Shown: positions 3,951 to 31,026, numbered from the stretch's first letter. The stretch: 64,000 nucleotides of DNA from an uncultured Calditrichaceae bacterium (GCA_964624795.1 CAZUZS010000001.1:57260-121259), one strand, 5' to 3'. Notes: a model not told the origin generated them from the sequence alone. Made by a program: numbers and translations.

Positions 3951-5093
3951 CTACTGGTAGATCCTTGACACAAAAGGCCCCGCGAGAAAGGCATCAGGAT
4001 CAATCTGGCTCTGAAGAATGCATCCCCGGTAATTGCCGGTGAGAAGCAGCCGGGCGGATTCCACTAATCCTGCAGCGGTAGTAGCCTGAATTGCCCGCAT
4101 GCGTTTTCCGCCAATTTCCATTGGTTTGATGTGGTAGGATTTCTCGATAGTGCGTAATTTATTACCGGAGTCTTTGCCGATTACCGAGACATAAATGACT
4201 ACCAGGTCTTCTTCCACCGAGGGAATAAGTTTCTCCATTTTTTCCTGCAGCTTTTGGACACGGTCTTCGCCATGCCGAATTTCCCTTAATAACCCATCTA
4301 TCCAGCCATAGTGCCCGGGGTACCGCAGCGTTTTGTAGTCAAGGCTGCGGGTTTTTCCAGACAGGGCTACCGGCAGGTCGGCTGCGCCACCGGAAGTCAG
4401 ATCCTCCTCATACTGAATTCCGTCCAGCACAATTTGTGAGCGCTCGGTAAGAGATGCCTTGCTGGTCGTTTTAAAGTCGCGGATTACTTCAGCCGGTTTT
4501 ACGTACAATGTAGCGACGCCCACCGGACTCCAGGTAAAACCATAGAAGTGAGGCGGATACGCGTTTTGGGTAAGCGCCCCGACTTTCATGTTGACAGATT
4601 CGACCTTCTCCTTACCAAAATCCCTGCAAAATTGCCGGTAAAGTCCATTTGCCAGAACATCTACAAAGCCGGGCGCAAGACCGGTTTGCAAAATAAAACC
4701 CTTTTGGGCATCGCCGGCGATTTCCAAGACCTGATTCGTTTCGTAGACATACTCGGTAAGGTTCGCGTAGTGGAGGTCATGCTGTATAGCCAGCTTTGCA
4801 ATCCGTGGCGCCTGGCTGCCCGGCAGGCAGTCCAAAACGATATCCGCCTTATTTAGAATTTCACTCAATTGTTCGTTTGTTCCGCTACGGGGCATAACGA
4901 AATGTTCCACGGTTCCTTTTTGAACGGAATCCCGCCGGATCCAGCTTACTGCCTCTTTAGCCGCTTCCTCGATGGCATCGCCCAGGTAAAGATCGACTTC
5001 AAAATCACCGACTTCTCTTAGTAGCAGCCCAGCCGCGCGACCAATACCACCGGTGCCGGCGATCGCAACTGTGTATTTCTTTTTTGACACCAC
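3951..5093 (-). CDS. Saccharopine dehydrogenase-like NAD(P)-binding oxidoreductase
   Basis: N-terminal Rossmann motif 'VAIAGTGGIGRAAG'; overall saccharopine/homospermidine-dehydrogenase-like organisation. Confidence 0.55.
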   Translation of the reverse strand: MVSKKKYTVAIAGTGGIGRAAGLLLREVGDFEVDLYLGDAIEEAAKEAVSWIRRDSVQKGTVEHFVMPRSGTNEQLSEILNKADIVLDCLPGSQAPRIAKLAIQHDLHYANLTEYVYETNQVLEIAGDAQKGFILQTGLAPGFVDVLANGLYRQFCRDFGKEKVESVNMKVGALTQNAYPPHFYGFTWSPVGVATLYVKPAEVIRDFKTTSKASLTERSQIVLDGIQYEEDLTSGGAADLPVALSGKTRSLDYKTLRYPGHYGWIDGLLREIRHGEDRVQKLQEKMEKLIPSVEEDLVVIYVSVIGKDSGNKLRTIEKSYHIKPMEIGGKRMRAIQATTAAGLVESARLLLTGNYRGCILQSQIDPDAFLAGPFVSRIYQ

Positions 5094-5212: not shown

Positions 5213-6850
5213 CTATTTTTCTCCAAGCGGTTCCCACAGTCCATATGATTCGATTTTTATCTGCACCTGCGGATCGGTTTTATAGGTTTCGTAGGAATTA
5301 TAGTACCATCCCATATATTGGGAATCTCCGCCACCCTGGGTAGTAATCAGAAAACGATTGGAAAGGTGCCCGATGTTCATCGCGCGGTCGCGCGGCAGGG
5401 GTTTGTCGCCGCCTTGCGGGTCAATGGGAATCCAGCCGTAGTTCGGGAGATAAACTTCCGGCCAGCGATGAAAAACATCATCCATGCTGGCGTCATCTCC
5501 CCGTACCACAATACTGCCTACATAGCGGGCCGGCAGGCCGGCTGCCCGGCACAGTGCAATAAAACTAAAGGTATATTCCGAACAGGATCCGGTCCCTCGT
5601 TTCAAAACTACAGGCGCTACGTTCCAGCCGCCCTCCAGTTTGTATTCCAGTTTATCTCTTACATAATCAAAGATCTTGCGGGCAACCCAGTAAGGATTTT
5701 GTTCATCCCCGACAATCTTCTTTGCTAAATCCTGAATGTACGGATCGTCGATCTGGTATTTGCTGCCGTTGGCAGTAAACGTCTTCTGTATGTCACCGGG
5801 CATATCAGCAAGCGTACCGCATTTATCGGGAAAAATAAAATATTTGATCTCGGAGATTTTCGCATCTACTACCATTCGTGATGTGATTGCAGCTTCGCTT
5901 TGGATACCCGCAGAATGGAAATGTGCAAATTGCTGCCCCCAGCGGTCTTTTACGGTGGTAAAATTCTCCGGAATGAATTTCTTCGATAGGATTTCCTGCT
6001 GATTTAAATTTTCAGGAATGGAGATGTAAACATCCAGGTCCTTCAACCGGCCGGACCCGTAAATTTGGGTTTCGTGGGTAAAGGTAATCCGCGCGGTCCG
6101 GGTATTATCCAATTTGAACAAATCATTATCGCTGCGAACCAGTTGGTAAATCTCACCTTTTTCAAAATCCACATTCCAGATGGTTTTGCCATCCCAGGCC
6201 AATCCGCGGGGATAAGGACCCGGCGAGTCGAGCACCAGGATAACCTCCCCGTTGCCGGGATCGATCATATAGATCTCATTCATGATGCGGTCCGAGCACC
6301 ACAAATACCGGCCATCCCAGGTAAGCCCCTGTGCATATTTGGCAGGCGCCGAAAATGTTTGGATTGCAGTTCCATCGCTCAAATCGATTTTCATGATCTC
6401 ATTTGCGCGATAATCGCTGACCCACAGCGTCTTCCCATCCCAAGTCAATCCCTCTGCATTGGAGCTCGGCGAGTCTATCACTCTTAGAATCGTTCCGTCC
6501 GCCGGATCAACCTGGAAGATCTTGTTCTGCCTGCCGTCAATATTCCAGAGATATTTCCCGTCCCAGGCTAAACCCATCGGCCAGAATCCGGGGGACGGTA
6601 TTTCCCGGACTACTTTTCCGGTCGCCGGATTCACACAGGAGATCTTATCAGCCTGGTAATCGGCGGTCCACAGGTTACGCCCATCAAATGTCAGCCCGGT
6701 TGAAAAATGATAGGGTGTCTGGATACTGCGAATTATTTTGCCTGGATAGGCAAAAACCACAGTTGATATTCCCAGAACGAGAAAGAAAATCAGTTTCTGA
6801 ATTTTAAGCATGACAGCTCTCCTTCTAACAAATGTGTTACTCAAATCCAA
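5213..6850 (-). CDS. Secreted glutaminyl-cyclase-like beta-propeller repeat protein fused to a C-terminal transglutaminase-like cysteine-protease domain
   Basis: Signal peptide, then at least six repeats of 'GL(T/A)WDG+xLW..D.....I..ID...G'. The C-terminus 'GTGSCSEYTFSFIALCRAAGLPARYV...' is a transglutaminase-core motif with a catalytic Cys. Confidence 0.6.
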   Translation of the reverse strand: MDLSNTFVRRRAVMLKIQKLIFFLVLGISTVVFAYPGKIIRSIQTPYHFSTGLTFDGRNLWTADYQADKISCVNPATGKVVREIPSPGFWPMGLAWDGKYLWNIDGRQNKIFQVDPADGTILRVIDSPSSNAEGLTWDGKTLWVSDYRANEIMKIDLSDGTAIQTFSAPAKYAQGLTWDGRYLWCSDRIMNEIYMIDPGNGEVILVLDSPGPYPRGLAWDGKTIWNVDFEKGEIYQLVRSDNDLFKLDNTRTARITFTHETQIYGSGRLKDLDVYISIPENLNQQEILSKKFIPENFTTVKDRWGQQFAHFHSAGIQSEAAITSRMVVDAKISEIKYFIFPDKCGTLADMPGDIQKTFTANGSKYQIDDPYIQDLAKKIVGDEQNPYWVARKIFDYVRDKLEYKLEGGWNVAPVVLKRGTGSCSEYTFSFIALCRAAGLPARYVGSIVVRGDDASMDDVFHRWPEVYLPNYGWIPIDPQGGDKPLPRDRAMNIGHLSNRFLITTQGGGDSQYMGWYYNSYETYKTDPQVQIKIESYGLWEPLGEK

Positions 6851-7186
6851 ACCGGCGTTAAGTCAATTTTCGGAGTTGGTCAATCAAAATATCCAAGAAC
6901 AGGTTTTTCTTGTTTTTATTTTTTGCATCCTGCGGCGTCCGGGACGTTGCATTCTGCTCTCCGGGGAAGAAATGGAATTCTCCGGCTTTCATAAAATGTG
7001 GCGCATGTATTGACCGCTCTTCATGCAATGCAGCATCTGAATTCTTATCAACAGAATCCCGCGGCCACTTTGATATTCATTTTCGTCAGGCGGGCCAGAC
7101 AATAAAAATAGTTGATTCGGGCAAATCCATAGCTGAGAGGAGGGCTGCACAGGCATCCAAATGCGGATTTAAATGCCGCGAGATAT

Positions 7187-7930
7187 TTAATCTTCTTCTT
7201 TCCCCATATTTGCTTCGTCCATAAGGCGAAGCGCTTCCAATAAAATGTTCATAGTTGAACCATTGATGTTTGGCGTAATCTTGGCTTCCAACGGTTCAAA
7301 TTTGAACAAGCCATCACTTAAAGCCACCAACCTGTTGATTGCCTCGACTCCCTCCTCTTTGCCCGCGGTCGCAAAAATAATATTGCCTTGTTTGAATACA
7401 ATTTTGCCCGTAACGATCGAGGTAATTTCCAGCGTTCCGTTGCGTTTATTCTGATTCAGCAACTGGATAACTTCCGCAAGACTGAGATCCGCCAGGTTGC
7501 CTTCGAAGCCTTTTACCTGAGCGGTCGTTTCGCTGTCCATTGCCCTCACCCGTTTGGCCCGGTTTAATAGCGTTTCCACCTTGGCGAGCAGCACGTTGCG
7601 GTCCACCGGTTTTACCAGGTACTCATCGGCGCCGGCACGAAAGCCCCGTATTTCCATGTCACGATCTTCAAGGCTGGTGAGAAAAATGAAAGGCACCATA
7701 GGCGTGGCAGAGTTTTCCCGTATCATCCAGCAGAATTCAATACCGTCGGTCTGGGGCATCATCACATCCGAGATAATGAGATCCGGCTGGATTTTATTAA
7801 CCACCTCCAGACCTTCATCCCCGTTCTCGGCGGAATGAATCTCGTAGCCGGCCTTTTCGAGGCTGATCCGCAGCAGTTTCAGAACATGCGGATTATCGTC
7901 TACAATCACTATTATGTCTTTATCAGCCAT
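7187..7930 (-). CDS. Response regulator: receiver domain plus DUF4388 domain
   Basis: 'IVIVDDNPHVLKLL...DLIISDVMMP' is a receiver with a phospho-acceptor Asp. The C-terminal 'GNLADLSLAEVIQLLNQNKRNGTLEI...IVFKQGNIIFA' is DUF4388-like. Confidence 0.7.
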   Translation of the reverse strand: MADKDIIVIVDDNPHVLKLLRISLEKAGYEIHSAENGDEGLEVVNKIQPDLIISDVMMPQTDGIEFCWMIRENSATPMVPFIFLTSLEDRDMEIRGFRAGADEYLVKPVDRNVLLAKVETLLNRAKRVRAMDSETTAQVKGFEGNLADLSLAEVIQLLNQNKRNGTLEITSIVTGKIVFKQGNIIFATAGKEEGVEAINRLVALSDGLFKFEPLEAKITPNINGSTMNILLEALRLMDEANMGKEED

Positions 7931-7954
7931 GGTTCAAGACGAACAGTTTATTTT

Positions 7955-9409
7955 CTATTCTTTGCCCTCGTAGCACACATTCAGCTCTTTGTTAGCCTTT
8001 AATTCATCTACCCGGCGAACAGGCGTATGAAATGGCGCATGGTGCATTTGCTCCGGATCGGCTTTTGCCTGTTCCACTACTTTTTCGAAAATATCCGCAA
8101 ATTGATCCAGTGCGTCCCTGCTTTCCGATTCAGTAGGCTCTATCATCAGCGCTTCCTTTACAATCAGGGGAAAATAAACGGTGGGTGCATGAACACCATA
8201 ATCCAGCAATCCCTTGGCAATGTCCATCGCTTTCACACCGTGTGACCGGGCCAGCGATTCGGCGCTCAGCACGAATTCATGCATCGGCCGAGTTTCATAT
8301 TTCAGCTCCAGTACTTTTCGCAGGCGACTGAGCAGATAATTCGCGTTAATGATGGCATTTTTGCTGATCTCTTTCATGCCAGCCTGGCCGTGCATCCGGA
8401 TATAAACATAGGCACGCAACAAGGCCGCAAAATTTCCATAAAAGGTAATCATTCTGCCTATCGAATGCGGGATGTCGCTGTTCAGGAAATAACTTCCACC
8501 CTTAACATCAACTATCGGAACCGGGAGAAAATCTTTCAACCGCTCGCTTACTGCCACCGGCCCGGCGCCCGGTCCACCGCCGCCATGCGGAACGGCAAAG
8601 GTCTTATGCAGATTAATATGCAGAACGTCAAATCCCAAATCACCGGAGCGAACAATCCCCAACAGGGCATTGAGATTCGCCCCATCCATATAGAGAAGGC
8701 CTCCCGCATCGTGGACAAGTTTTTCTATTTCAACGATGCCGCCCTCAAAGATCCCTAAAGTGCTGGGATTGGTCAGCATGATACCGGCAACCTCATCATC
8801 CAGCTTCGACTTCAGATCATCGATATCCACCATGCCGTCTTCGCGGCTTTTCACCTGAACGGAATGCATTCCGGCAATCGCGACCGAAGCCGGGTTGGTT
8901 CCGTGCGCGGAATCCGGCACCAGCATTTTGGTGCGGTTTTCCCCACGCACAAGATGGTATTTGCGAATCATCATACAACCGGTCAGCTCACCATGAGCAC
9001 CGGCAGCCGGCTGGAGGGTGATGGCAGCCATGCCGGTAATTTCTTTCAGCATTTCCTGTAATTCGAACATGATTTGCAGTGCCCCCTGGACGGTTTGCAG
9101 GGGCTGCATCGGGTGCAGTGAGCTGAAACCGGGGAGCGCCGTCACATCCTCATTAATCTTGGGATTGTATTTCATTGTGCAGGAACCGAGAGGATAGAAA
9201 CCCTTATCGACATTGTGATTCAGCGTTGAAATATTAACAAAATGCCTGACGACTTCATTTTCGCCGACCTCCGGAATATCGGGAGAATTTTTTCGCAACA
9301 TCTCACCCGGAATCAACTTCGAGACTGGTTGTTCGGGTACATCCAGATTTGGCAGGTAATTCTTTTTAATTTTTTCACGATCTAATTCGAATATTAGCTT
9401 TTTATACAT
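7955..9409 (-). CDS. gcvPB: Glycine dehydrogenase (decarboxylating) subunit 2
   Basis: 'YPLGSCTMKYNPKINE' and the PLP-fold region; start taken as 'MYKKLIFELDRE'. The listed ORF extends 26 codons upstream and would overlap the adjacent response-regulator gene. Confidence 0.9.
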   Translation of the reverse strand: MYKKLIFELDREKIKKNYLPNLDVPEQPVSKLIPGEMLRKNSPDIPEVGENEVVRHFVNISTLNHNVDKGFYPLGSCTMKYNPKINEDVTALPGFSSLHPMQPLQTVQGALQIMFELQEMLKEITGMAAITLQPAAGAHGELTGCMMIRKYHLVRGENRTKMLVPDSAHGTNPASVAIAGMHSVQVKSREDGMVDIDDLKSKLDDEVAGIMLTNPSTLGIFEGGIVEIEKLVHDAGGLLYMDGANLNALLGIVRSGDLGFDVLHINLHKTFAVPHGGGGPGAGPVAVSERLKDFLPVPIVDVKGGSYFLNSDIPHSIGRMITFYGNFAALLRAYVYIRMHGQAGMKEISKNAIINANYLLSRLRKVLELKYETRPMHEFVLSAESLARSHGVKAMDIAKGLLDYGVHAPTVYFPLIVKEALMIEPTESESRDALDQFADIFEKVVEQAKADPEQMHHAPFHTPVRRVDELKANKELNVCYEGKE

Positions 9410-9419
9410 CCTATCACCT

Positions 9420-10454
9420 TTATGCGTTATCATTGTCGATTCTGGAGTAGCGAACCGTCTGGTTTCGTCCGTTGGATTTTGCGACATTCAACGCCTTTTC
9501 GGCTAATTGAATGGTCTCTGCGGGGGTGCTCACCTGTTCGAAATCGACCTTCACCAGGCCGGCACTAATGGTAATATGCTGATAATTTTGCTTTCGCTTG
9601 GGCGATAATTTTTTGAGCTCATAAAAATCCTGGTCAAAAAAACCGGCCTGATCAACCGCCGCACGAATTCGTTCCGCTTCGTAATAGGCGCCATTTTCAT
9701 CGGTATGCGGCAAAACAACGATAAAACGGTTGCCTGCGGACCGGAAGACAATATCCGTATGCCGGGTGTTGTTGAGTATCACGTTGGCTATGCGCATCAG
9801 GATATAATCGCCGGTCTGCTCGCCAAAAACATCATTTATTTTATGAAAAAGGTCAACATCCAGAGCCACAAGGGAAAGATCGCTGTGGTAGCGATGGGAA
9901 CGGGAAAGCTCTTCTTCCAGTCGTTTTTGGAGAAATGCCTTATTGTAGAGGCCGGTTAACAGATCGGTAATCTGGCCGGCTTCCAACTCGGTGGCCTTTT
10001 TCCGCAACATTTCGAGTTCCTTAAACGCGTGGCTGTGCTCTTCCACCAACTGCTGATTATCTGCCCGCAGGCGCTCGATGAGGTCTTTTTTGTGTAGAAG
10101 CGATTTGACCCGCGCGATCAGTTCTTTTGCGTTGAACGGCTTAAGAATATAATCGTCCGCGCCCAGTTCCAGGCCCAATACCCGGTGCTCATCCTCAACA
10201 TAGTTGGCAGACAGAAAAATGACTGGAATGTCTTTGGTGGTATCTTTTTCCTTCAGAATTTTGCAGGCATCGAAACCGCTAAGCACCGGCATGAGCGCGT
10301 CGAGGATTATAATATCCGGTTTCTCTTTTTCGGCTGCTTCGATGCCTTCCTTCCCATTGGCTGCCTTCGCAACATCGAATTCATAAAAATGAAACAGATG
10401 TTCCAGAGTATCGAGCATGTCTTCGTTATCGTCGACGATCAGAACTTTTGCCAT
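9420..10454 (-). CDS. Response regulator with receiver domain and a degenerate GGDEF domain (GG[DE]EF replaced by AGNRF)
   Basis: 'KVLIVDDNEDML...DIIILDALMP' is a receiver. The GGDEF fold 'LTGLYNKAFL...' carries 'RSAGNRFIVVL' where 'RYGGEEF' is expected. Confidence 0.75.
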   Translation of the reverse strand: MAKVLIVDDNEDMLDTLEHLFHFYEFDVAKAANGKEGIEAAEKEKPDIIILDALMPVLSGFDACKILKEKDTTKDIPVIFLSANYVEDEHRVLGLELGADDYILKPFNAKELIARVKSLLHKKDLIERLRADNQQLVEEHSHAFKELEMLRKKATELEAGQITDLLTGLYNKAFLQKRLEEELSRSHRYHSDLSLVALDVDLFHKINDVFGEQTGDYILMRIANVILNNTRHTDIVFRSAGNRFIVVLPHTDENGAYYEAERIRAAVDQAGFFDQDFYELKKLSPKRKQNYQHITISAGLVKVDFEQVSTPAETIQLAEKALNVAKSNGRNQTVRYSRIDNDNA

Positions 10455-10470
10455 GATTTACAATAACCTG

Positions 10471-11796
10471 CTATCTCATCTCTTTCAACAAACCGACCAG
10501 GTAATCCATTTCAGCCCGCGTACGTTTTTCCGTTACCGCGACCAGCAACCCGTTGCCCATCTTCACCTCCGCCAGGTCGATTCCGGCAAATACATTTTTT
10601 TCCGCCAGGCGATCGATGATCTGCCGCGCCGGAACCGGTGTTTCCACTGCAAATTCCTTGAAAAACGGACCGGGGTATTTGAGGCGGTAACCGTCCAGCC
10701 CGCTGATCTTTTCCGCCAGGTAGTGACTCTTCTGAAGCGTCAGATCGGCTACTTTTTTTACGCCGCTTTCTCCCACCAGAGAAAGGTAAACCAGTGCGGC
10801 CAGAGCGCAAAGCTGCGAATTTGTGCAAATATTGCTGGTTGCCTTCTCCCGCCGGATATGCTGTTCGCGGGTTTGCAGGGTCGTGACGAACGCCCGCTTT
10901 CCGTCCACATCGGTTGTCATTCCGACGATGCGGCCGGGCATCTTGCGAATCAGCGCTTTGGTGGCAGCAAATACACCCAGGTAAGGTCCACCGAAATTCA
11001 GCGCATTGCCGAACGACTGTCCCTCGCTCACTACAATATCTGCCCCGGTTTCTCCTGGCGTTTTTAATATGCCCAGGGAAATGGGATCCACCGATTGGAT
11101 AAACAGCGCACCCTGCCCATGAATCAAGTCGGCGAGGCCGTCGAGATCCTCCAGCAAACCATAATAATTCGGGTTCTGGACCACAACCGCGGCGGAATCC
11201 GAATCCAATTGTTTGAGTAGTGAATCCCGGCTGATTACGCCGTTGGAAAGTGTAATCGGGACAATCTCAATATCCTGATCCTTTGTATAAGTGCGAATGA
11301 TATCGAAGTAAAAGGGATTAATATTTTCGGCAACCAGAACCCGGCGTCTGCCAGTCTGGTGAGCTGCCATCAGGGCCGCCTCCGCCAAAGCCGATCCACC
11401 ATCATACATGGAAGCATTTGCGACATCCATGCCGGTAAGACGGCAAATCATGGTCTGGTATTCGTAAATTGCCTGCAGGGTGCCCTGGCTGACTTCCGCC
11501 TGGTAAGGTGTATAAGCAGTGTAAAATTCCGAGCGCCATAAAATATGCCGGACCGCGGCAGGCACGTAATGATCGTAGGCCCCTCCGCCCAGAAATGAAA
11601 TACCTGTCCTGTTTTTTGCGGCAAGATCGTTCATCGCCCGGGTCGCTTCGAATTCGCTTAATTCCGGCGGAATGTTCAATTCGCCCGTGAAACGGATGGA
11701 GTCCGGAATGTAGTCAACAAGACTCTCAAAATCTTTCACACCAATTGCATCTAACATGATCTCACGATCTTTTTCAGAATTCGCGATAAAAGCCAT
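10471..11796 (-). CDS. gcvPA: Glycine dehydrogenase (decarboxylating) subunit 1
   Basis: Family-typical N-terminus 'ANSEKDREIMLDAIGV...' and length. Confidence 0.9.
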   Translation of the reverse strand: MAFIANSEKDREIMLDAIGVKDFESLVDYIPDSIRFTGELNIPPELSEFEATRAMNDLAAKNRTGISFLGGGAYDHYVPAAVRHILWRSEFYTAYTPYQAEVSQGTLQAIYEYQTMICRLTGMDVANASMYDGGSALAEAALMAAHQTGRRRVLVAENINPFYFDIIRTYTKDQDIEIVPITLSNGVISRDSLLKQLDSDSAAVVVQNPNYYGLLEDLDGLADLIHGQGALFIQSVDPISLGILKTPGETGADIVVSEGQSFGNALNFGGPYLGVFAATKALIRKMPGRIVGMTTDVDGKRAFVTTLQTREQHIRREKATSNICTNSQLCALAALVYLSLVGESGVKKVADLTLQKSHYLAEKISGLDGYRLKYPGPFFKEFAVETPVPARQIIDRLAEKNVFAGIDLAEVKMGNGLLVAVTEKRTRAEMDYLVGLLKEMR

Positions 11797-11845
11797 CAGT
11801 TTCCCTCGATTTACAAAATCGTGTTTTCAGAACATTTCGAAGTCT

Positions 11846-12220
11846 TTAAATCAATTCTTCGTACTGCGCTTTATCCAGAAGATTTGCCGCTTCGGAATCG
11901 TCGGACATTTTGATTTTAATGATCCACCCATTACCATAGGGATCTTTATTGATCATCTCGGGCTGATCGGAGAGTTGATTATTTACGTCCACGATTTCGC
12001 CGGACAGGGGAGCAAACATATCCGAAACTGCCTTCACAGCTTCGATTGTACCAAAGCTCTCGCCCTGGGTGCTGTCCGAACCAACCTCGGGAAGCTCAAC
12101 GTAAACTATGTCTCCCAATTCGCTTTGCGCGAAATCCGTAATGCCGATTGTGGCAACACCATTTTCAATACGAGCCCATTCATGATCTTTCGTGTACTTC
12201 AGTTCTCCGGGAATCTGCAT
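11846..12220 (-). CDS. gcvH: Glycine cleavage system H protein
   Basis: 'MQIPGELKYTKDHEWARI...' aligns with the E. coli GcvH N-terminus; lipoyl-Lys context 'IEAVKAVSD'; GGAGGA 5 nt upstream of this ATG. Confidence 0.9.
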   Translation of the reverse strand: MQIPGELKYTKDHEWARIENGVATIGITDFAQSELGDIVYVELPEVGSDSTQGESFGTIEAVKAVSDMFAPLSGEIVDVNNQLSDQPEMINKDPYGNGWIIKIKMSDDSEAANLLDKAQYEELI

Positions 12221-12232
12221 TAGGTCCTCCAA

Positions 12233-13591
12233 TCAAATTTCAATTAATTTTTTGCTGTATATTTTTTCGATAAAATTGGTATCAAAATCACCGGCCTGAA
12301 ACTCCGGCGTGTTGATGACATATTGATGAAACGGAATAGTGGTTTTTATTCCTTCTACCACAAATTCATCCAGCGCCCTTCTCAATCGGGCAATCGCCTC
12401 CTGGCGATCTGCCCCGTGGACGATCAGCTTGCCGATTAATGAATCGTAATAGGGCGAAATTTTGTAAGTGGCATAAATGTGCGTATCCACCCGTGTTCCA
12501 GGCCCGCCGGGCTGGTAAAAGGAAGTAATCTCTCCGGGTGAGGGGATAAAATTGTTATCCGGGTCCTCGGCATTTATCCGGCATTCGATGGCGTGACCGA
12601 CCGGCTTTAGATTTTCCTGCTTCAATTTAAGCTTCTGGCCGTTGGCAATCCGAAGTTGTTCCTTTATAAGGTCCACATTGTAAACCATCTCCGTCACCGG
12701 GTGCTCCACCTGGATCCGGGTATTCATTTCCATAAAATAATAATTCAGATCTTTGTCTACCAGGAATTCAATTGTGCCTGCACTTGTGTATCCGACGTGC
12801 AGTGCCCCTTTCGCAGCGGCTTCGCCCATCATTTTGCGTACCTTCGCCGAAATTATTGGGGACGGGGACTCCTCGATCAGTTTTTGGTGCCGCCGTTGGA
12901 TAGAGCACTCACGCTCCCCCAGGTAAACCATGTTTCCTTTATCGTCGCCCAACAACTGGATTTCAATGTGGCGGGGATTTTCGATGAACTTTTCGAGGTA
13001 GAGGCCGGAATTTCCGAATGCCGCTTCCGCTTCGGCCCTGGCCATCATGTAACTGTTTTCCAGGTTTTCTTCCTTCCACACAATGCGCATTCCTTTACCG
13101 CCGCCACCGGCAACCGCCTTTAATATCACCGGGAAGCCCATTTCCTTTGCTATGCTTCTGGCATCGGTCTCCGATTTCACTATTCCTTCGCTGCCGGGAA
13201 CAACCGGTACTCCGGCGCTGGTCATGGATTTTTTGGCTTCCGCCTTGTCGCCCATTTTTCGAATGACTTCGGGCGTGGGGCCGATAAAAGTAATTTCGCA
13301 GGAATTGCACATTTCGGCAAACTGAGCATTTTCCGCCAGGAAACCGTAGCCCGGATGGATGGCGTCCGATCCGGTAATTTCTGCCGCAGAAATAATGCGG
13401 CTGGCATTCAGGTAACTCTGGTTGCTCTGCGGCGGGCCGATGCAGACTGCTTCGTCGGCAAATACCGTGTGAAGCGCATTCTCATCGGTCGTAGAATAAA
13501 CGGCAACCGTTTTGATGTCCAGTTCCTTGCAGGCGCGAATAATCCGGATCGCAATTTCGCCCCGATTGGCAATGAGTACTTTATTGAACAA
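12233..13591 (-). CDS. accC: Acetyl-CoA carboxylase biotin carboxylase subunit
   Basis: '[18 protein letters not shown]' and ATP-grasp motifs. Confidence 0.9.
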
Positions 13592-13619
13592 AAAGCGTTC
13601 TCCCCGTGGATTTTACGTG

Positions 13620-14114
13620 TTATGCTTTTTCGATGAGAAACAGAACCTGGTCGAATTCCACCGGTTGGGCATTTTCCACTACAATTTTGGTGATGCGGCC
13701 GCTGAATTCGGATTGGATTTCATTCATCAGTTTCATCGCCTCAATGATGCACAATGTCTGTCCCGGTTTTACAGTATCGCCTATTTCCACATACGGATCC
13801 GCGTCGGGAGCAGGCGCCCTGTAAAAGGTGCCGACCATCGGTGAGCGGACCTCAACGACGTTGGCCGCCAACTCCGGTTCCGGTTTCTTCTCCGTTTCGG
13901 TGGCTGCAGGTTGTTGGGCGGTTACGCCGGGTGGCGGGGCAGGTAATGAAACCTGGTACGGCGCGTAGTTACCGCCATTGGGTGCGGGAGCGGATTGGAG
14001 ATAGCGGTTATTCTTGGTGATTCTGATCTTTCGTCCCTCTTCAACAATCTCGATTTCCCCTATTTCGCTCTTTTCTACCACCTTAATAAGTTGCTTAATT
14101 TCCTGGAAATCCAT
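13620..14114 (-). CDS. accB: Acetyl-CoA carboxylase biotin carboxyl carrier protein
   Basis: Biotinylation motif 'EAMKLMNEI'; Pro/Ala-rich linker. Confidence 0.85.
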   Translation of the reverse strand: MDFQEIKQLIKVVEKSEIGEIEIVEEGRKIRITKNNRYLQSAPAPNGGNYAPYQVSLPAPPPGVTAQQPAATETEKKPEPELAANVVEVRSPMVGTFYRAPAPDADPYVEIGDTVKPGQTLCIIEAMKLMNEIQSEFSGRITKIVVENAQPVEFDQVLFLIEKA

Positions 14115-14191
14115 CCATCCTCCGGATTTTACTATATAATTTTTTCAATTTAAAAGGTACACCTAATTTTTGCAAGAGTTATTTTCCTGGC

Positions 14192-14779
14192 CTATCTATA
14201 CAACTGTTTCTCTTGAATATAGAGATCAACTGCATCGGGCACCAAATAGCGCACTGAGTGCCCCTCACGCACCCGATTTCTCACGAACGTGGAAGAGATT
14301 TCCAACAGCGGTACATGAACAAACCGGATCGATTGCAGGAATGGCTGCGCTGCCTCCCCCGGCTTGAAACCGGGTCTTCCGAAAGCGACCACCTGGCATT
14401 TCTCCAGAATCTCATCCGGTGCCTTCCAGCGGTGCAAATCGTTTACATTATCCATTCCGATAAGAAAGTAAAAACTCGGCGAAATTTCAGCGAACTGTTC
14501 AAGAAGGCCATTAATCGTGTCAATAGTGTAGGAGACACTATCTCGTTTCAGCTCGATATCAACAACCCGGAGATATTGATTATTTGCGCAAGCCAGCTCG
14601 GCCATTCTCAGACGATGCTGTGGACCAACAATGTCCTGGTTATTTTTGAGCGGGTGAATATTAGCCGGAATAAACCAGATTTCCTCCAATCCCAGCTCAT
14701 CCCGCAGGTATTCGGAAATGATAAGGTGACCATTGTGGATGGGGTCGAAAGTCCCCCCGAAGAGTCCGATTTTTTTCAT
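14192..14779 (-). CDS. nadD: Nicotinate-nucleotide adenylyltransferase
   Basis: 'GLFGGTFDPIHNGHL' (HxGH nucleotidyltransferase motif). Confidence 0.85.
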   Translation of the reverse strand: MKKIGLFGGTFDPIHNGHLIISEYLRDELGLEEIWFIPANIHPLKNNQDIVGPQHRLRMAELACANNQYLRVVDIELKRDSVSYTIDTINGLLEQFAEISPSFYFLIGMDNVNDLHRWKAPDEILEKCQVVAFGRPGFKPGEAAQPFLQSIRFVHVPLLEISSTFVRNRVREGHSVRYLVPDAVDLYIQEKQLYR

Positions 14780-14786
14780 TGGCAGA

Positions 14787-15587
14787 TTATTTATCCGTTT
14801 CCTGATTGACAGCTTCGCTTTTGTTATGGTTCTCCTGGATATTCTCTATTCGGGAGCGGGCTTGTTTCCGGTACTCGCTCTTGGGATATTTCTCAATGAA
14901 TGCTGTGAAATTTGACAGCGCCTCATCATACTGCTTCAGTTTATATTGGCATTCAGCCTTCCAGAACATGGCCTTTTCGGCATAAGGTGTGTCGTAATAC
15001 TGGTCCAGCAGAATATCGTAGTATATGATGGCCGAATCGTAAATCCCCATTTTGCGGTAAACATTGCCGCCGCTTTTGAGTAGTTTTTTGGCCAATTTAT
15101 CGCGCAGTTTGGCAATCTGCTTCTCCGCGTCGGGGCGCAGGTCGGACGAAGGATAGGCTTCTATAAAATTCTGAAAATGGCGAAGCGCTTTTTGGGTGTA
15201 TTCCTGGTCCAATTCTGCGCGCTGGGACAACTCCGCGTAGCTCAAGCCAATTTTGTAGAACGCCTTTTCCACATAAGGGCTTTCAGGGTAATCGTCCACA
15301 ACTTTTTGATATTCGGCAACCGCGATCAGGTACTCCCCGTTCCCAAAATGAGATTCCGCCAGGTAATACTGGGCATCATCAATCACCGGGTCGCCGCTGA
15401 ACTTCAGCACAATTACGGTGAATTCAGTGATGGCGGTGAGGTATTTGCCCTTGTCGAACAACCCTTTTGCATATTCGAAATAGGCCTGCGCACCCAGATC
15501 CGATCTGTTTATTTTTGGACTGCAACTTGCCAATAACAGAATTCCTGATAAAACAAGGAAAAAGTATTTTGAAATCTTGCCTGTCAT
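14787..15587 (-). CDS. bamD: Outer membrane protein assembly factor BamD-like TPR lipoprotein
   Basis: Lipoprotein signal 'LLLASCSP'; BamD/YfiO-like TPR architecture. Confidence 0.65.
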   Translation of the reverse strand: MTGKISKYFFLVLSGILLLASCSPKINRSDLGAQAYFEYAKGLFDKGKYLTAITEFTVIVLKFSGDPVIDDAQYYLAESHFGNGEYLIAVAEYQKVVDDYPESPYVEKAFYKIGLSYAELSQRAELDQEYTQKALRHFQNFIEAYPSSDLRPDAEKQIAKLRDKLAKKLLKSGGNVYRKMGIYDSAIIYYDILLDQYYDTPYAEKAMFWKAECQYKLKQYDEALSNFTAFIEKYPKSEYRKQARSRIENIQENHNKSEAVNQETDK

Positions 15588-16231
15588 TACGAACTACTCC
15601 TCAAAGTATAAAATAAATAAACTACCCCGGCTGTCGTAACAGTGACCAGAGCCGGCTCAACCAGCCATTTTAAGAATTTCGACTCCGATTTGGTTCCGAT
15701 AGTGAACGGATAGTCTACGTTTTCTACCAGTTTAACAGTGGAACGCTCGATCACATCATCATATTGATGAGTTTTAGTGCGCGAGTGAAGAATGGAGTTT
15801 TGACCATTCTCAATAAAAAAAGAAACCGTCGCTTCAATCTCCCGCGCATATTTCGTAGCCCGGAAAAGCAGGTTACGATCCACCGTGCGGTATCTGATAC
15901 TATTGTTAATCTTCTCAAATACAATTTTCCCGACCTCCCGGGAGGGTGAAGTCAAAGAATCGTACAATATATAATTTCTTTTCAAAAGCGCTTCACGCAG
16001 ATCGGCGACTGCCCATCTGCCCACCTCATTTTTATCTTTCAGCACGATCTGAATGCCATCCTGGCGGTGTGCCTGCGAATCCAGGGCCGCAAGAACCGGC
16101 TGCACAATCAGGTCGGCTAACACCTGTTGGTTGGTCGGCACCTGCGCATTCCCCGTATTGAATATGAGGAGAATTGTTGCTGTGAGGATACCGGATATAT
16201 GTAAATTTTTCGGTTTACTCATGCCCACCAT
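15587..16231 (-). CDS. Hypothetical exported protein with a C-terminal transmembrane helix
   Basis: N-terminal signal 'ILTATILLIFNTGNAQ'; C-terminal hydrophobic 'LVTVTTAGVVYLFYTL'. ATGA overlap with bamD suggests co-transcription. Confidence 0.45.
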   Translation of the reverse strand: MVGMSKPKNLHISGILTATILLIFNTGNAQVPTNQQVLADLIVQPVLAALDSQAHRQDGIQIVLKDKNEVGRWAVADLREALLKRNYILYDSLTSPSREVGKIVFEKINNSIRYRTVDRNLLFRATKYAREIEATVSFFIENGQNSILHSRTKTHQYDDVIERSTVKLVENVDYPFTIGTKSESKFLKWLVEPALVTVTTAGVVYLFYTLRSSS

Positions 16232-17806
16232 TTATATTATTGCCTTGCGTTCGTACCAAATCCAACTGATTAATTTAAACAATAATATAAGGAAAGACAC
16301 TATGAGTGTAAATTTTCCAAACCACTCGCCGTGCTTTGTGTAAAAGCTGTGCTTTTTGTCGACTGGCAGGTATGCCACCATGTCTTTTCGTATGTTCAAA
16401 CCGGCCTTTTGCAATACCTTGCCGGTGGGATCGATGAAGCAGGAAATTCCCGTATTGGCATTTCGAATAATACTCACCCGGTTCTCGATGGCGCGGAATA
16501 CCGCATACCGGGCATGCTGGTAAGGGCCGCTGGTCAGACCAAACCAGCCGTCATTGGTAATGATAGTCAGCAGATCCGCACCGTTTTTAACAAAGCCGCG
16601 AACCACGTGCGGAAAAACAGAATCGAAACAGATGACCGCCGCCAATCCCGTCTTAACATGTTGCATCCCCGCCGGCTGGTCGGGCCGGAAGGCGCCGTTA
16701 TCAAAACGCCCGCTTCGGGCAGGCAGATCGATTTTAAATACCGTAAATTTATTACCGTGAAAGAAATCGCCGCCGCCGACATTCAGTTTTCGCAGGAACG
16801 GAAACACATTTTTGAAAGGCATGCTCTCCGCTGCCGGCACCAGGGCCAGCTTATAATAATAATCGAAAACAGGGTCTCCGGGACGGAAGAAAAAAGCGGC
16901 ATTGTAAGTTCGATAATCGTCATCCTGTGCATTGAAGGCATAATCCGGTGTTCCGGTAAGAAGATAGATGCCGGTAGAATCCACAAAGTTGTTTATTGCG
17001 TGGCGGCTTTCAACACGGGATCGCAGGTAAAACGGCGTGGCGGTTTCCGGCCAGACAATTATCTGTGGTTTCAAGGGCAGCATCTCGCGGCTGGCATCCA
17101 TCAACATGTCGAAAGCTTCTTTCTGGAATTGCGGCTCCCATTTCTCATAGGGATCAACATTCGGTTGCACCAGCCCGGCCTTGATGAGCGGGTAACTGGC
17201 ATTTTCAATGGTGTCGATGCGAATTTGACCGTAAATAAAAAGCACTGCCAGGATGGCCGCGGTGGTGGCCGGGGAAATCCACAGCCAGCTCTTTTTCCAG
17301 CGAAACGCCGCGTAAATCAAAGTAGTTATGACGATGAGCAAGAACGACAAACCCAGGTAGCCGCTAATTTCGATGATTTGAATGAATGGCCGGTAGTAGG
17401 TCTGGGTATAGGCCAGCGTCATCCAGTTGAACCTGATGTCCGAAAACAGCCGCAGGTATTCCATTGCTGTCCAGATGAACGGCAGGCTGAAGATCGCCAG
17501 CTTTTCGCTCCGTTTTTTCAGCAGCGCGTAAATCCAGAACACAATGGCGTAGTGCAGCGCATTAATAGTGATTGCCAGGATGGCGCCGGTCAATGTGCTG
17601 GCAGCAATCCAGAAAAGCGTCATGGCGCCCCATATCAGGCCAAGCCAGTAACCCAGCCGGAAACTTTCCCGCGCCCCTTTGTCTTTCAGAAACCACAGAA
17701 AATAAGCCAGTGCAAAGGGAGCCATGATTCCTGTCGGAAACGGCGGAAAACTCAAGGCTAAGAGAATGGAAACCGGTATGAGTTTTTTAAATTCTGTTTT
17801 GTTCAT
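16232..17806 (-). CDS. lnt: Apolipoprotein N-acyltransferase
   Basis: N-terminal polytopic membrane segment plus CN-hydrolase domain with catalytic-Cys context 'AAVICFDSVFP'. Confidence 0.8.
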   Translation of the reverse strand: MNKTEFKKLIPVSILLALSFPPFPTGIMAPFALAYFLWFLKDKGARESFRLGYWLGLIWGAMTLFWIAASTLTGAILAITINALHYAIVFWIYALLKKRSEKLAIFSLPFIWTAMEYLRLFSDIRFNWMTLAYTQTYYRPFIQIIEISGYLGLSFLLIVITTLIYAAFRWKKSWLWISPATTAAILAVLFIYGQIRIDTIENASYPLIKAGLVQPNVDPYEKWEPQFQKEAFDMLMDASREMLPLKPQIIVWPETATPFYLRSRVESRHAINNFVDSTGIYLLTGTPDYAFNAQDDDYRTYNAAFFFRPGDPVFDYYYKLALVPAAESMPFKNVFPFLRKLNVGGGDFFHGNKFTVFKIDLPARSGRFDNGAFRPDQPAGMQHVKTGLAAVICFDSVFPHVVRGFVKNGADLLTIITNDGWFGLTSGPYQHARYAVFRAIENRVSIIRNANTGISCFIDPTGKVLQKAGLNIRKDMVAYLPVDKKHSFYTKHGEWFGKFTLIVSFLILLFKLISWIWYERKAII

Positions 17807-18029: not shown

Positions 18030-19073
18030 TTACTCTTTATCAAACGTTATTTCACGCCCATCGTGGAACGACTGATAGATGGCATCAGTAATCGACAGCA
18101 CCTTCACTGCGTCGTCGATCGGAGATTCAAGCTGGCTTACCCTGCCTGTGAGGTAATCAAAGAAATGATTGACTTCATTTTCGTAGCCCTTTTTAAAATG
18201 AGCGATCCGGGAATCTTTCACATCAGGAGTAATATTGACGATCTGCCCGTGCCAGAATTTTTGCAGACGCAGCGGATTCAACATCCCGGTGCCGTTTTCG
18301 CCTGCAACTTCCAGAAAGAGCTGATCCTTGGTAACAGGGAAATCCCAACTCACTTCCAGGGAGAGGGAAATTTGGTTATCGAAAGTCACGCATGCTACGC
18401 AAAAATCTTCAACCGCCAGACTCTTTTCAACCTTGAAAGAAAACGCTTTGGTCGCGAGCGGATCTGGTTTATCCAGCAGCCACCAGGCCAGGTCAATCAT
18501 CTGCACTCCCAGGTCCAGGACCACACCGCCGCCCGACACATTCTTCTGGAATAGCCACGGTTGCTTGATAGCCTGGTGCCGCGCCTGCAGCCAACCGGCC
18601 TTCAGGAAAAACAAGTCTCCCAATTCACGGTCTTTGAGAAAAGTCCGAAGTGCATTGGCATCGGTGCGGAAGCGGTTGTGCATTCCCACAAAAACCATCC
18701 GCCCTGCCGAAGCGGCCTTTCGCCGGATGCGTTCTGCTTCATCTGAGTTGCGGGCAGCTGGCTTTTCCAGAAAAACATGAACACCGTAATCCAATGCGAT
18801 CAGGCTCATGGGTAGATGCAGGTTATTGGGAGTAAGAATAAAGACCGCCTCCAATTCCTCGGCCCGCAGCATCTCGGCAATGTCATCATAGATATGAGGT
18901 ATCCCGAATTTGTTCGCAACAACCGCCGCCTTGCTGGCATCGGCATCGCAAAGCGCCTGAACCTTGACATCCGGATGCCTGGTTAAGACCGGCAGATGAA
19001 TCACCTGGGCGATGTTGCCTGCTCCAACCACTCCCACCGGAATGGGAATTCCTCCCCCGTTCGGATCATTCAT
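18030..19073 (-). CDS. Gfo/Idh/MocA family NAD(P)-dependent oxidoreductase
   Basis: 'VGVVGAGNIAQVIHLPVL...EKPAARN' is a Rossmann fold with the EKP motif. Confidence 0.8.
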   Translation of the reverse strand: MNDPNGGGIPIPVGVVGAGNIAQVIHLPVLTRHPDVKVQALCDADASKAAVVANKFGIPHIYDDIAEMLRAEELEAVFILTPNNLHLPMSLIALDYGVHVFLEKPAARNSDEAERIRRKAASAGRMVFVGMHNRFRTDANALRTFLKDRELGDLFFLKAGWLQARHQAIKQPWLFQKNVSGGGVVLDLGVQMIDLAWWLLDKPDPLATKAFSFKVEKSLAVEDFCVACVTFDNQISLSLEVSWDFPVTKDQLFLEVAGENGTGMLNPLRLQKFWHGQIVNITPDVKDSRIAHFKKGYENEVNHFFDYLTGRVSQLESPIDDAVKVLSITDAIYQSFHDGREITFDKE

Positions 19074-24685: not shown

Positions 24686-25003
24686 GAGGGGAGTTGTTGA
24701 ATTTGTGCTTTGCTTCGTTTTGGCCACTTTCCTTCTCAAACCGGTTTCAAATCTTTGCGCCAAAATAAAAACAATTTGCAGGTAATTCAACTTCTTAAAT
24801 TGATAGGAACTTCGGCATAAGGAAAGTAGAAACTGGACCATCGTGCGGATTTTAACGGAAATCAAAATCAGATATGCTACAGTTACTACCCGAAAGACTT
24901 CACTCGCGGGTGGGATGATTCGGATCGGCCAGTTTCCTTTAGCTTTATTTTAACCTCAACCCTTTCCCCCGATGAGCTTGAAAAGTAGCCAGGATTCTCT
25001 CTG

Positions 25004-25396: not shown

Positions 25397-26770
25397 ATGC
25401 ATCATATTAAAATGAATATCCTGGGCAACTCGGCTATCTTTTTTCTTTTATGTTCAGGAATTTTTATCTCCGGCTTTGCGCAATCCCCGGCGGACACGCT
25501 GCGGTTGACCCTGGACAAGGCAATTGAAATCGCCCTGAAAAACAACCAGGATGTGCTAATTGCCAGGGAGGAGGTAGACAACGCGCACCAGCAGATTCGC
25601 GCCGCCTATGCCGGGGTTATGCCTCAATTTTCGGTCTCCGGGCAATACGAGCGGAATATAAAACTTCCTGTTCTGTTTATTCCTCCCAATTCGCCGTTTA
25701 ACCCCACCAACCAGACACAGACTATTTCGCTGGGAGCCAACAACAATTACAGCGCATCGCTCTATGTGCATCAAACGATTTTTGATCCCAGGATCGGGAC
25801 TGCGATCCAGATTGCCAAAAGATACGGCAACTATTCCAAACTGGGCTCCCGCTCTACCCGGCAGGATGTGGAATTGAGCGTTAAAAAAGCCTTCTACGGA
25901 ATCCTGCTTCAGCAAAAAATGGTGACGGTGATGCAGCAGAGTTACAACCTGACCCGGGCGAATCTGGAAAATGTGCAGGCATTATATAAGGAAGGAACGT
26001 CGTCCGAATACGATTTGCTGCGCGCGCAGGTGCAGGTAGCAAACAGTGAGCCGCCGCTAATCCAGGCGCAGAACAATCTGGAGCTGGCGGTCACCAATCT
26101 AAAGAATCTGCTGGCGCTGAAACTGGATCAGCCGCTAAAAGCGGAAGGAGAATTTCGTTTCGAGCAAATTCCGCCGGAGGAAATGGAAGCCGCCAGCACC
26201 GCGGCGCTGCTTTCCAACCCGGATATCCTGCAGCTCAAGGTGCAGAAATCCATTTTGGAAAAAAAGATTACCGTGCAGCGCGCGGAATATTTTCCCAGCC
26301 TGTCGGCATTCGGCACCTACCAGTATCAGACCCAGGACAACTCGTTCAACTTCAATAATTACAAATGGGTCAACACATTTGCCGCCGGCCTTCAACTGTC
26401 GTTTACGCTGTTTGACGGATTCAACCGGGCGGCGCAGGTGCAGCAGGCCGAAATCGGCGTCCGGAAACTGGATTTTTCGCTGCAAAAGGCGGAAGATGGA
26501 CTGAAGATTCAAATTCTGCAGGCGCAGATGAACATGCAGGAGGCCAAAAAACGGATTTTTGCCCAGCAGCAAAGCCTGGGGCAGGCTGCGAAAGCGGTGC
26601 AAATTGCCGGCACCCGCTACAAAAGCGGGGTGGGGACGCAACTGGAACTGTTAGACAGCCAGACCGCGTTGACCCAGGCACGCACCAATTACACTAAAGC
26701 GATCTACGATTATCTCATTGCCAAATCGGAATGGGAACGGCTGGTCAGCTATTATCCGGAGACGGAGTAA
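25397..26770 (+). CDS. tolC: TolC-family outer membrane efflux protein
   Basis: Signal peptide and length typical of outer-membrane efflux proteins. Confidence 0.8.
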   Translation: MHHIKMNILGNSAIFFLLCSGIFISGFAQSPADTLRLTLDKAIEIALKNNQDVLIAREEVDNAHQQIRAAYAGVMPQFSVSGQYERNIKLPVLFIPPNSPFNPTNQTQTISLGANNNYSASLYVHQTIFDPRIGTAIQIAKRYGNYSKLGSRSTRQDVELSVKKAFYGILLQQKMVTVMQQSYNLTRANLENVQALYKEGTSSEYDLLRAQVQVANSEPPLIQAQNNLELAVTNLKNLLALKLDQPLKAEGEFRFEQIPPEEMEAASTAALLSNPDILQLKVQKSILEKKITVQRAEYFPSLSAFGTYQYQTQDNSFNFNNYKWVNTFAAGLQLSFTLFDGFNRAAQVQQAEIGVRKLDFSLQKAEDGLKIQILQAQMNMQEAKKRIFAQQQSLGQAAKAVQIAGTRYKSGVGTQLELLDSQTALTQARTNYTKAIYDYLIAKSEWERLVSYYPETE

Positions 26771-26821
26771 ATGATTCCATCAGTCAGAAATAATCAACAT
26801 ATAATAAAGAGGCATCGGTTC

Positions 26822-30900: not shown

Positions 30901-31026
30901 CTGATCACTTCCACCCTGCTCACGCTGTTCGTTGTCCCGGTAGTTTACACTTACCTGGACGATTTTTCATTGCGGGGAATATTTCACTGGATCAAGCGGG
31001 TTATTTTTCGGGTGAAGGAGGGGTAA
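27907..31026 (+). CDS. Efflux RND transporter permease subunit (HAE1/AcrB-like)
   Basis: 1039 aa with the 12-TM AcrB architecture, e.g. '[18 protein letters not shown]'. ATGA overlap with the adaptor gene. Confidence 0.9.

Follow-up and report, generated by a model that had tools for sequence, protein, structure and literature searches.

Does a response regulator that is encoded inside a metabolic operon belong to that metabolism? The question is raised by a stretch of 64,000 nt from an uncultured Calditrichaceae bacterium (GCA_964624795.1 CAZUZS010000001.1:57260-121259); it is referred to below as the window, and coordinates count from its first letter. In this window the glycine-cleavage genes gcvH and gcvPA are followed by the gene of a receiver-GGDEF (REC-GGDEF) response regulator, then by gcvPB, and then by the gene of a second, receiver-DUF4388 (REC-DUF4388) regulator. 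An earlier note on this DNA had taken the arrangement to imply signalling coupled to glycine and one-carbon flux. Comparison across the Calditrichota argues otherwise: that regulators are encoded within a metabolic operon does not by itself imply a coupling to metabolism, and at this locus the metabolic genes are facultative and the regulators are fixed. The genes concerned are listed here in minus-strand order, with RR1 denoting the REC-GGDEF regulator and RR2 the REC-DUF4388 (REC-PATAN) regulator.

13620-14114, minus strand: accB, biotin carboxyl carrier protein (Pfam Biotin_lipoyl, E=7e-23), upstream member of the conserved array
12233-13591, minus strand: accC, biotin carboxylase (NCBIfam accC, 745 bits against a cutoff of 626)
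11846-12220, minus strand: gcvH, lipoyl carrier H-protein (NCBIfam GcvH, 181 bits against a cutoff of 117)
10471-11796, minus strand: gcvPA, glycine dehydrogenase subunit 1 (NCBIfam GcvPA, 624 bits against a cutoff of 364), facultative at the locus
9420-10454, minus strand: RR1, REC-GGDEF response regulator of 344 aa (Pfam and NCBIfam)
7955-9409, minus strand: gcvPB, glycine dehydrogenase subunit 2 (NCBIfam GcvPB, 725 bits against a cutoff of 441), facultative at the locus
7187-7930, minus strand: RR2, REC-DUF4388 response regulator of 247 aa (Pfam)

Open reading frame (ORF) calls and the sequence place accB-accC-gcvH-gcvPA-RR1-gcvPB-RR2 in this order, and the successive spacers from accC to RR2 are 12, 49, 16, 10, and 24 nt. 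The order from gcvH to RR2 and its spacings, as first described, agree exactly with the ORFs, the sequence, and the Pfam and NCBIfam matches.

To what extent this order is shared was assessed in one genome per species, by tblastn mapping of the window proteins. The scan yielded 64 Calditrichota loci (a few labelled by their depositors as KSB1, Deltaproteobacteria or Caldisericaceae), of which 63 have a full-length RR1 orthologue and an assignable form; it also returned unrelated cyanobacterial REC-GGDEF genes. The regulator pair lies after accBC-gcvH in all 63 species, gcvH is retained beside them wherever a locus extends over its position, and accB is syntenic at nearly all related loci. Two forms of the locus are found. 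In form A, accC-gcvH-gcvPA-RR1-gcvPB-RR2, which is that of the window and of 27 related loci, the spacers around gcvPA, RR1, gcvPB, and RR2 have medians of 15, 10, and 15 nt, and the recurrence of this order and tight spacing in 27 other species-level genomes is far beyond chance. In form B, accC-gcvH-RR1-RR2, neither gcvPA nor gcvPB is present at the locus, and this is the arrangement in 36/63 species. The gene order is thus only partly conserved: 27 other species keep it in full, and the remainder keep the regulators without the two P-protein genes. These two genes are present or absent together wherever the locus covers both positions, and the gap between accC and gcvH has a median of 11-13 nt in both forms.

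The two forms do not follow the phylogeny of the locus. In a neighbour-joining tree of accC, gcvH, RR1, and RR2 they are interleaved, with at least six changes by Fitch parsimony, and both occur inside the window's own clade (>70% identity) as well as inside the most distant clades. No columns of the RR1 alignment separate form A from form B. The nearest relatives of GcvPB outside the Calditrichota belong to other phyla of the Fibrobacterota-Chlorobiota-Bacteroidota (FCB) group, at about 60% identity, which indicates vertical descent. Because repeated insertion at exactly the same two positions is implausible, and because the GcvPB outgroups are FCB phyla, these data suggest that the ancestral locus had gcvPA and gcvPB interleaved with the regulators, and that both genes were then lost from it repeatedly. 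On this view the nesting reflects the history of the operon and does not indicate that glycine flux controls the regulators or is controlled by them.

The neighbourhood upstream points in the same direction, as the regulator pair forms the 3' end of a long co-directional array, mutS...bamD-nadD-accB-accC-gcvH. At a distant form-B locus (L082; 10-kb flanks, precomputed Pfam) the order is kinase(GAF-PAS)-mutS-HU-GFO/IDH-hypothetical-bamD-nadD-accB-accC-gcvH-RR1-RR2. The window shares this backbone, with mutS (22088-24865), a GFO/IDH gene (18030-19073), lnt, the gene of a hypothetical 214-aa protein, bamD, and nadD, and so do many other loci. The regulators are therefore a fixed element of a mosaic housekeeping and signalling array, and not as an insertion specific to glycine cleavage.

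The domain composition of RR1 is that of a diguanylate cyclase. A receiver domain (aa 4-117) leads into a long helix that forms the stalk (aa 109-160), and a degenerate GGDEF domain comes last (aa 163-332). This last domain matches Pfam GGDEF (PF00990) with E=2.3e-34, along positions 3-161 of the 161 in the profile; the Response_reg domains of the two regulators match at E=4.5e-27 and 9.5e-30. In the AlphaFold2 model (predicted local distance difference test score, pLDDT, 85.6), a single helix spanning aa 109-160 joins the receiver to the GGDEF domain. The best Foldseek matches are WspR (3bre), PleD, and DgcR, and the isolated GGDEF domain superposes at a root-mean-square deviation of 1.5-2.5 A with a template-modelling score of about 0.9, which places it within the GGDEF fold. 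Three short elements of RR1 are relevant to its function:

10299-10301, minus strand: codon of the predicted phospho-acceptor Asp52 (D52 in 120/120 homologues)
9753-9764, minus strand: inhibitory site (I-site) RHTD (aa 231-234), equivalent to PleD R359-x-x-D362 (PleD alignment)
9723-9743, minus strand: RSAGNRF (aa 238-244), the degenerate counterpart of the active-site hairpin RYGGEEF (PleD alignment)

HMMER alignment to the sequences of PleD structures is free of gaps over the I-site and the hairpin, where 'RHTDIVFRSAGNRF' pairs with 'RAIDLPCRYGGEEF'. In this alignment 'rhtdivfrsagnrf' lies on 'raidlpcryggeef', so that AGNRF replaces GGEEF and RHTD corresponds to RxxD. Active cyclases have GG[D/E]EF with two carboxylates (PleD E370 and E371), whereas in RR1 the place of the metal-binding Glu370 is taken by Asn and that of Glu371 by Arg. 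A shifted alignment that would restore a GGDEF motif was ruled out by the gap-free match to PleD and by a MAFFT alignment with 120 homologues. The other substrate and metal contacts (PleD D327, N335, D344, K442, and R446) are present as D199, N207, D216, K326, and R330. RR1 also has the features of an I-site receptor, namely RxxD five residues before the hairpin and R262 as the equivalent of R390, and its receiver set is complete (D8, D9, D52, S82, and K105-P106). As both carboxylates are lost, and in light of the precedent of CdgA (see below), RR1 is very likely catalytically inactive; a phospho-dependent, c-di-GMP (cyclic diguanylate)-binding, non-enzymatic role is the most plausible one. 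The earlier note had read the hairpin in the same way and had suggested a dead GGDEF domain acting as a phospho-dependent scaffold or c-di-GMP effector, a suggestion that the conserved I-site and receiver phospho-set support well at the level of sequence. Additionally, where PleD has a short hairpin, RR1 has an insert at aa 270-292 (9579-9647) that is basic, conserved, and particular to the family (FFDQxFYELKKLSPKRKQ). Confidence in this part of the model is low (pLDDT about 63); the insert could be an interaction motif.

The state of these sites in the family was determined from 120 RR1 homologues of 46-100% identity, aligned with MAFFT. The degenerate hairpin is a fixed family trait: its first two positions are essentially free, the third is N in 80%, the fourth is R or K in 85%, and Phe follows in 97%. 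The I-site is intact across the family (R 95%, D 94%), and the R390 equivalent is R in 87% and K in 9% (96% R/K). D52 and K105 are found in 120/120 sequences, D8/D9 and S/T82 are essentially invariant, and the nucleotide contacts are kept to varying degrees (D199 96%; N207 84%; D216 79%, with E in a further 18%; K326 89%; R330 74%). Mean pairwise identity is 70% in the receiver, 51% in the GGDEF domain, and 36% in the linker, and the difference between the latter two values indicates purifying selection on the GGDEF domain.

The decay of the active site can be followed through the phylum. One basal form-A orthologue (L018, 8001-9035, located after gcvPA) has an intact RITD...GGEEF; it is the sole orthologue with GGEEF and may still be an active cyclase. 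Other basal lineages have unrelated degenerate hairpins (EGANF, NTEDYF, KDEGF, DDGRF, and others) with RxxD nearly always kept, and in the crown clade, to which the window belongs, xxN[R/K]F is fixed. These states are consistent with descent from an active cyclase that turned into a pseudo-enzyme as selection shifted from the active site to the I-site. Neither the homologue search nor the species-level genome scan returned closer relatives of RR1 outside the Calditrichota, and by sequence the RR1 orthologues constitute a family of their own, specific to the Calditrichota. This defines an orthologous family of degenerate REC-GGDEF proteins that extends across the phylum and in which the route from an active cyclase (GGEEF, kept in one basal lineage) to a pseudo-enzyme with a retained I-site can be traced; it offers a natural series for the change from cyclase to c-di-GMP receptor.

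RR2 consists of a receiver (aa 7-118) followed by a DUF4388 domain (aa 143-240; PF14332, E=3.7e-20, profile positions 1-121 of 122). The earlier identification of a receiver-DUF4388 protein is confirmed by Pfam; what had gone unrecognised is that DUF4388 is the PATAN domain (PatA_N, PatA N-terminal). The receiver set of RR2 (D11, D12, D55, T85, and K107-P108) is invariant or nearly so in 42 sequences, the PATAN part of the AlphaFold2 model has a pLDDT of 86-97, and RR2 is 50-76% identical across the Calditrichota, a conservation above that of RR1. A sequence search for a solved PATAN structure returned receiver matches only. In Synechocystis, PATAN binds PilB1 and the N-terminus of PilC and suffices for signal output, and outside the cyanobacteria its function is essentially unknown (bioRxiv 10.1101/2021.06.11.447907). 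By analogy, the PATAN domain of RR2 is most likely a protein-protein interaction output module.

Overall, with a probability of roughly one half, we consider the two regulators to be a two-component output module that is conserved in the Calditrichota, lacks a kinase of its own ('orphan'), and is co-expressed with housekeeping genes. An unlinked kinase would phosphorylate both receivers. RR1, a protein of the WspR/DgcR type whose ancestor would have been an active diguanylate cyclase and whose hairpin has decayed, would be phosphorylated on Asp52 and would keep the inhibitory RxxD/R390-type site. As a dimer formed via the stalk, it would combine phosphorylation with c-di-GMP binding at the I-site, possibly bind GTP as well, and act as a pseudo-enzyme adaptor or antagonist, while RR2 would provide the output through PATAN-mediated protein contacts. 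The position in the housekeeping array would supply constitutive co-expression. RR1 and RR2 each belong to a known class, degenerate-GGDEF receptors and REC-PATAN regulators, respectively, and the operon, as a conserved mosaic, is a curiosity of how Calditrichota genomes are organised. The partner of the RR1 family, a REC-PATAN output regulator, is uncharacterised, and hardly any experimental data on signalling exist for the phylum.

Several observations weigh against this account. As gcvPA and gcvPB have left no relics in the form-B spacers (tblastn with 40+ queries gave noise only, the best match having E=0.004 on the wrong strand, and the spacers are too diverged for alignment by eye), their loss is deduced from parsimony over an unbootstrapped neighbour-joining tree, and recombination between lineages could mimic it. 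Among the best 120 GcvPB clusters (to about 58% identity), none could be placed in a form-B genome, a weak hint that these genomes do not carry gcvP elsewhere, given that one complete genome apparently lies outside the collection. The GTP contacts of RR1 are largely kept, so that nucleotide binding at the former active site is possible. The domain order of RR2 is the reverse of the PatA type, in which an N-terminal PATAN domain precedes a C-terminal receiver, and no pilus genes were present among the window genes examined. The counts from an intrinsic-terminator and sigma-70 promoter scan fell within the range of shuffled sequences, such scans not being informative for the Calditrichota. Finally, the phylum-deep retention of the pair directly after accBC-gcvH could reflect a functional link to these carrier-protein enzymes.

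Two alternatives concern the GGDEF remnant. It might be dispensable, leaving RR1 in effect a single-domain receiver that serves as a phosphate sink or antagonist to the REC-PATAN protein for one kinase. Such a division of labour has a parallel in the CheY-like/PatA-like pairs PixH/PixG and PilH/PilG, and antagonistic pairs of a PATAN regulator with a second, plain receiver are documented for chemotaxis-like systems (bioRxiv 10.1101/2021.06.11.447907 and PMC11181946). The receiver is also the best conserved part of RR1, at 70% against 51% for the GGDEF domain, and at one locus (L062, 1356-1745) the orthologue is a clean 129-aa receiver from which stalk and GGDEF domain are gone, with the REC-PATAN gene 55 nt further on. 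However, this truncation occurs in 1/64 loci, in a metagenome bin, and is either a true domain loss or a bin-specific artefact; the other loci keep the fold-defining residues, the I-site residues, and the insert at aa 270-292 across 38-100% identity. As this retention outside L062 points to selection on the GGDEF domain, we regard its dispensability as rather doubtful. Alternatively, the domain could be a GTP sensor or a residual or different enzyme, in which Asn and Arg/Lys in place of the metal-binding carboxylates would permit metal-independent nucleotide binding. Models for this are the GTP-binding degenerate GGDEF domain of Caulobacter PdeA and the ATPase-type GGDEF domain of GdpP. The guanine and phosphate contacts are indeed mostly kept at the frequencies given above, the hairpin shows constraint at positions 3-5 (N, R/K, F) and does not vary at random there, and RR1 has a faint match to GGDEF_GdpP (E=0.0012). 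That match is far under the Pfam cutoff, however, the I-site triad is conserved above the GTP-contact residues, and CdgA, which has Asn at the same hairpin position, is a proven inactive c-di-GMP receptor (PMC3271064). A nucleotide sensor is therefore an unlikely description of RR1.

The other two alternatives tie the regulators to their metabolic neighbours. Coupling of two-component and c-di-GMP signalling to glycine or one-carbon flux, through the activity or stoichiometry of the P-protein or through reporting of glycine, would be in keeping with the position of RR1 between gcvPA and gcvPB and the 10-16 nt spacers, kept in 27 species, since such tight spacing makes translational or transcriptional coupling plausible. 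It would also be in keeping with the absence of a riboswitch that would otherwise regulate the gcv genes. However, both regulators stay in place where gcvPA and gcvPB are missing, the forms alternate even among relatives of more than 70% identity, and no sequence feature of RR1 co-varies with the presence of the P-protein genes. Moreover, the Pfam scan revealed no gcvT among the window ORFs that it covered, and the larger array also holds nadD, bamD, mutS, and other unrelated genes. The glycine-coupling proposal of the earlier note is thus not borne out, and we consider it quite improbable. A related possibility is that the pair physically controls a swinging-arm carrier-protein enzyme, either acetyl-CoA carboxylase via the biotin carboxyl carrier protein (BCCP) or the GcvH-dependent lipoyl relay or glycine cleavage. 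The regulation of BCCP by PII and of pyruvate carboxylase by c-di-AMP are analogues with other players, and the fixed position of the pair after accBC-gcvH would then itself be functional; there is no positive evidence for such control, and it appears very improbable. If the pair did act on acetyl-CoA carboxylase or GcvH, it would constitute a two-component and c-di-GMP input to fatty-acid or lipoate metabolism, and a new second-messenger input.

Within the locus, the gene calls are consistent with an operon. gcvH begins with an ATG at the end of its 12-nt spacer from the accC stop, preceded by a GGAGG Shine-Dalgarno sequence, and gcvPB begins with an ATG at 9409 with an AGGTGA Shine-Dalgarno sequence; the GcvPB model alignment begins at residue 3 of this 484-aa form. 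A longer gcvPB ORF from 9487 was rejected, as it would run into the REC-GGDEF gene. The P- and H-proteins score above the NCBIfam equivalog cutoffs, and their translations include EAVKAV in GcvH and NLHKTF in GcvPB, which we take to be the lipoyl-lysine motif and the motif with the lysine that binds pyridoxal phosphate, respectively. All minus-strand terminator-like matches lie inside coding sequence and none is intergenic, which, together with the tight spacing, fits the co-transcription proposed earlier; the genes are probably transcribed as one operon. The hairpin 3' of the last gene, RR2, is without a U-tract (z=0.2). The absence of a glycine riboswitch, noted previously from the lack of room upstream of gcvH, agrees with Rfam, which at the gathering threshold returned only one tRNA in the whole window and at E<=1 returned zero matches in 6800-16500, including none to RF00504. 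Horizontal acquisition of the regulators was also considered and rejected, since the GC profile shows nothing unusual and the orthologues follow the same phylogeny as accC and gcvH.

Kinase genes near or within the array are found in two places. One lies in the window, upstream of the array; its coordinates are given here with those of nadD, the array member preceding accB:

31824-34886, minus strand: GAF-PAS-HisKA-HATPase histidine kinase, 1020 aa (Pfam), candidate partner kinase, as a lead only
14192-14779, minus strand: nadD

Over 371 aa this kinase shares 59% identity with the one that lies immediately upstream of mutS in L082, which places it in the same conserved block as the regulators. 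The second is found in basal lineages, where the genes of a HAMP-HisKA-HATPase kinase, a REC-GGDDF protein, and a tetratricopeptide repeat (TPR) lipoprotein lie between accB and accC (L037 1625-4648; also L018, L027, L039, L040, L049, L054, L055, and L064). The REC-GGDDF protein has a partial GGDEF-like domain with the motif GGDDF and without RxxD. Because of these three inserted genes, the acc-gcv array of the basal lineages holds one kinase and three receivers. In one clade (L037 32-1063; also L030, L033, L034, L035, L039, and L040), a 343-aa protein without a Pfam match is encoded just upstream of accB. By eye, it contains a putative PATAN-like segment followed by a degenerate receiver, and it would thus add a further signalling-type gene.

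Other features of the neighbourhood are as follows. The 214-aa ORF (15587-16231, minus strand) has no Pfam match and lies between lnt or GFO/IDH and bamD, a position kept phylum-wide at 30-67% identity. Upstream of the GAF-PAS kinase are coaX (34945-35736) and the biotin ligase gene birA (35706-36542), the latter two genes upstream of the kinase. A resistance-nodulation-division (RND) efflux cassette (25397-31026, plus strand; OEP, HlyD-type adaptor, and AcrB-type pump) separates mutS from the kinase; since these two adjoin in L082, the cassette looks like a lineage-specific insertion. Downstream of the regulators (299-2543 and 5213-6850, both minus strand) are two CsgG-like lipoprotein genes, one with TPR repeats, and the gene of a transglutaminase-core protein with beta-propeller-type repeats. 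Synteny of the transglutaminase gene and of a saccharopine-dehydrogenase-like gene (3951-5093) is restricted to the closest relatives.

Among characterised systems, the best sequence and structure matches of RR1 are WspR, DgcR, and PleD, with which it shares the domain order, the I-site, and the long alpha5-linker helix that runs to the DxLT motif; they carry GGEEF and are active enzymes, whereas RR1 has AGNRF. Degenerate-GGDEF receptors of c-di-GMP form a class that includes PopA of Caulobacter. The closest functional precedent is CdgA (Bd3125) of Bdellovibrio bacteriovorus, which carries GVNEF and RxxD; it lacks cyclase activity, and it binds c-di-GMP, the dissociation constant being about 2 uM (PMC3271064). 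Both proteins have a non-canonical hairpin with Asn at the same third position and an intact RxxD five residues upstream. In the RR1 family, however, Arg/Lys replaces the fourth hairpin residue as well, the first two positions are free of constraint, and a WspR-like single receiver is joined through a long stalk. The mechanism of DgcR is a register shift of its stalk that is driven by phosphorylation (PMC8041772).

RR2 resembles the PatA-type regulators (PixG, PixE, and PilG of Synechocystis, and PatA of Anabaena) in that a PATAN domain is fused to a receiver and the protein is paired with a second receiver protein. It differs in its REC-PATAN order, in a short PATAN domain of about 100 aa that matches the Pfam model end to end, and in a neighbourhood without chemotaxis or pilus genes. 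As for the metabolic genes, Bacillus subtilis has a gcvT-gcvPA-gcvPB operon controlled by a glycine riboswitch. The Calditrichaceae locus similarly encodes a split P-protein from gcvPA and gcvPB. However, it has neither the riboswitch nor gcvT, its gcvH is joined to the accBC operon, and a regulator gene parts gcvPA from gcvPB, both of which are dispensable at the locus.

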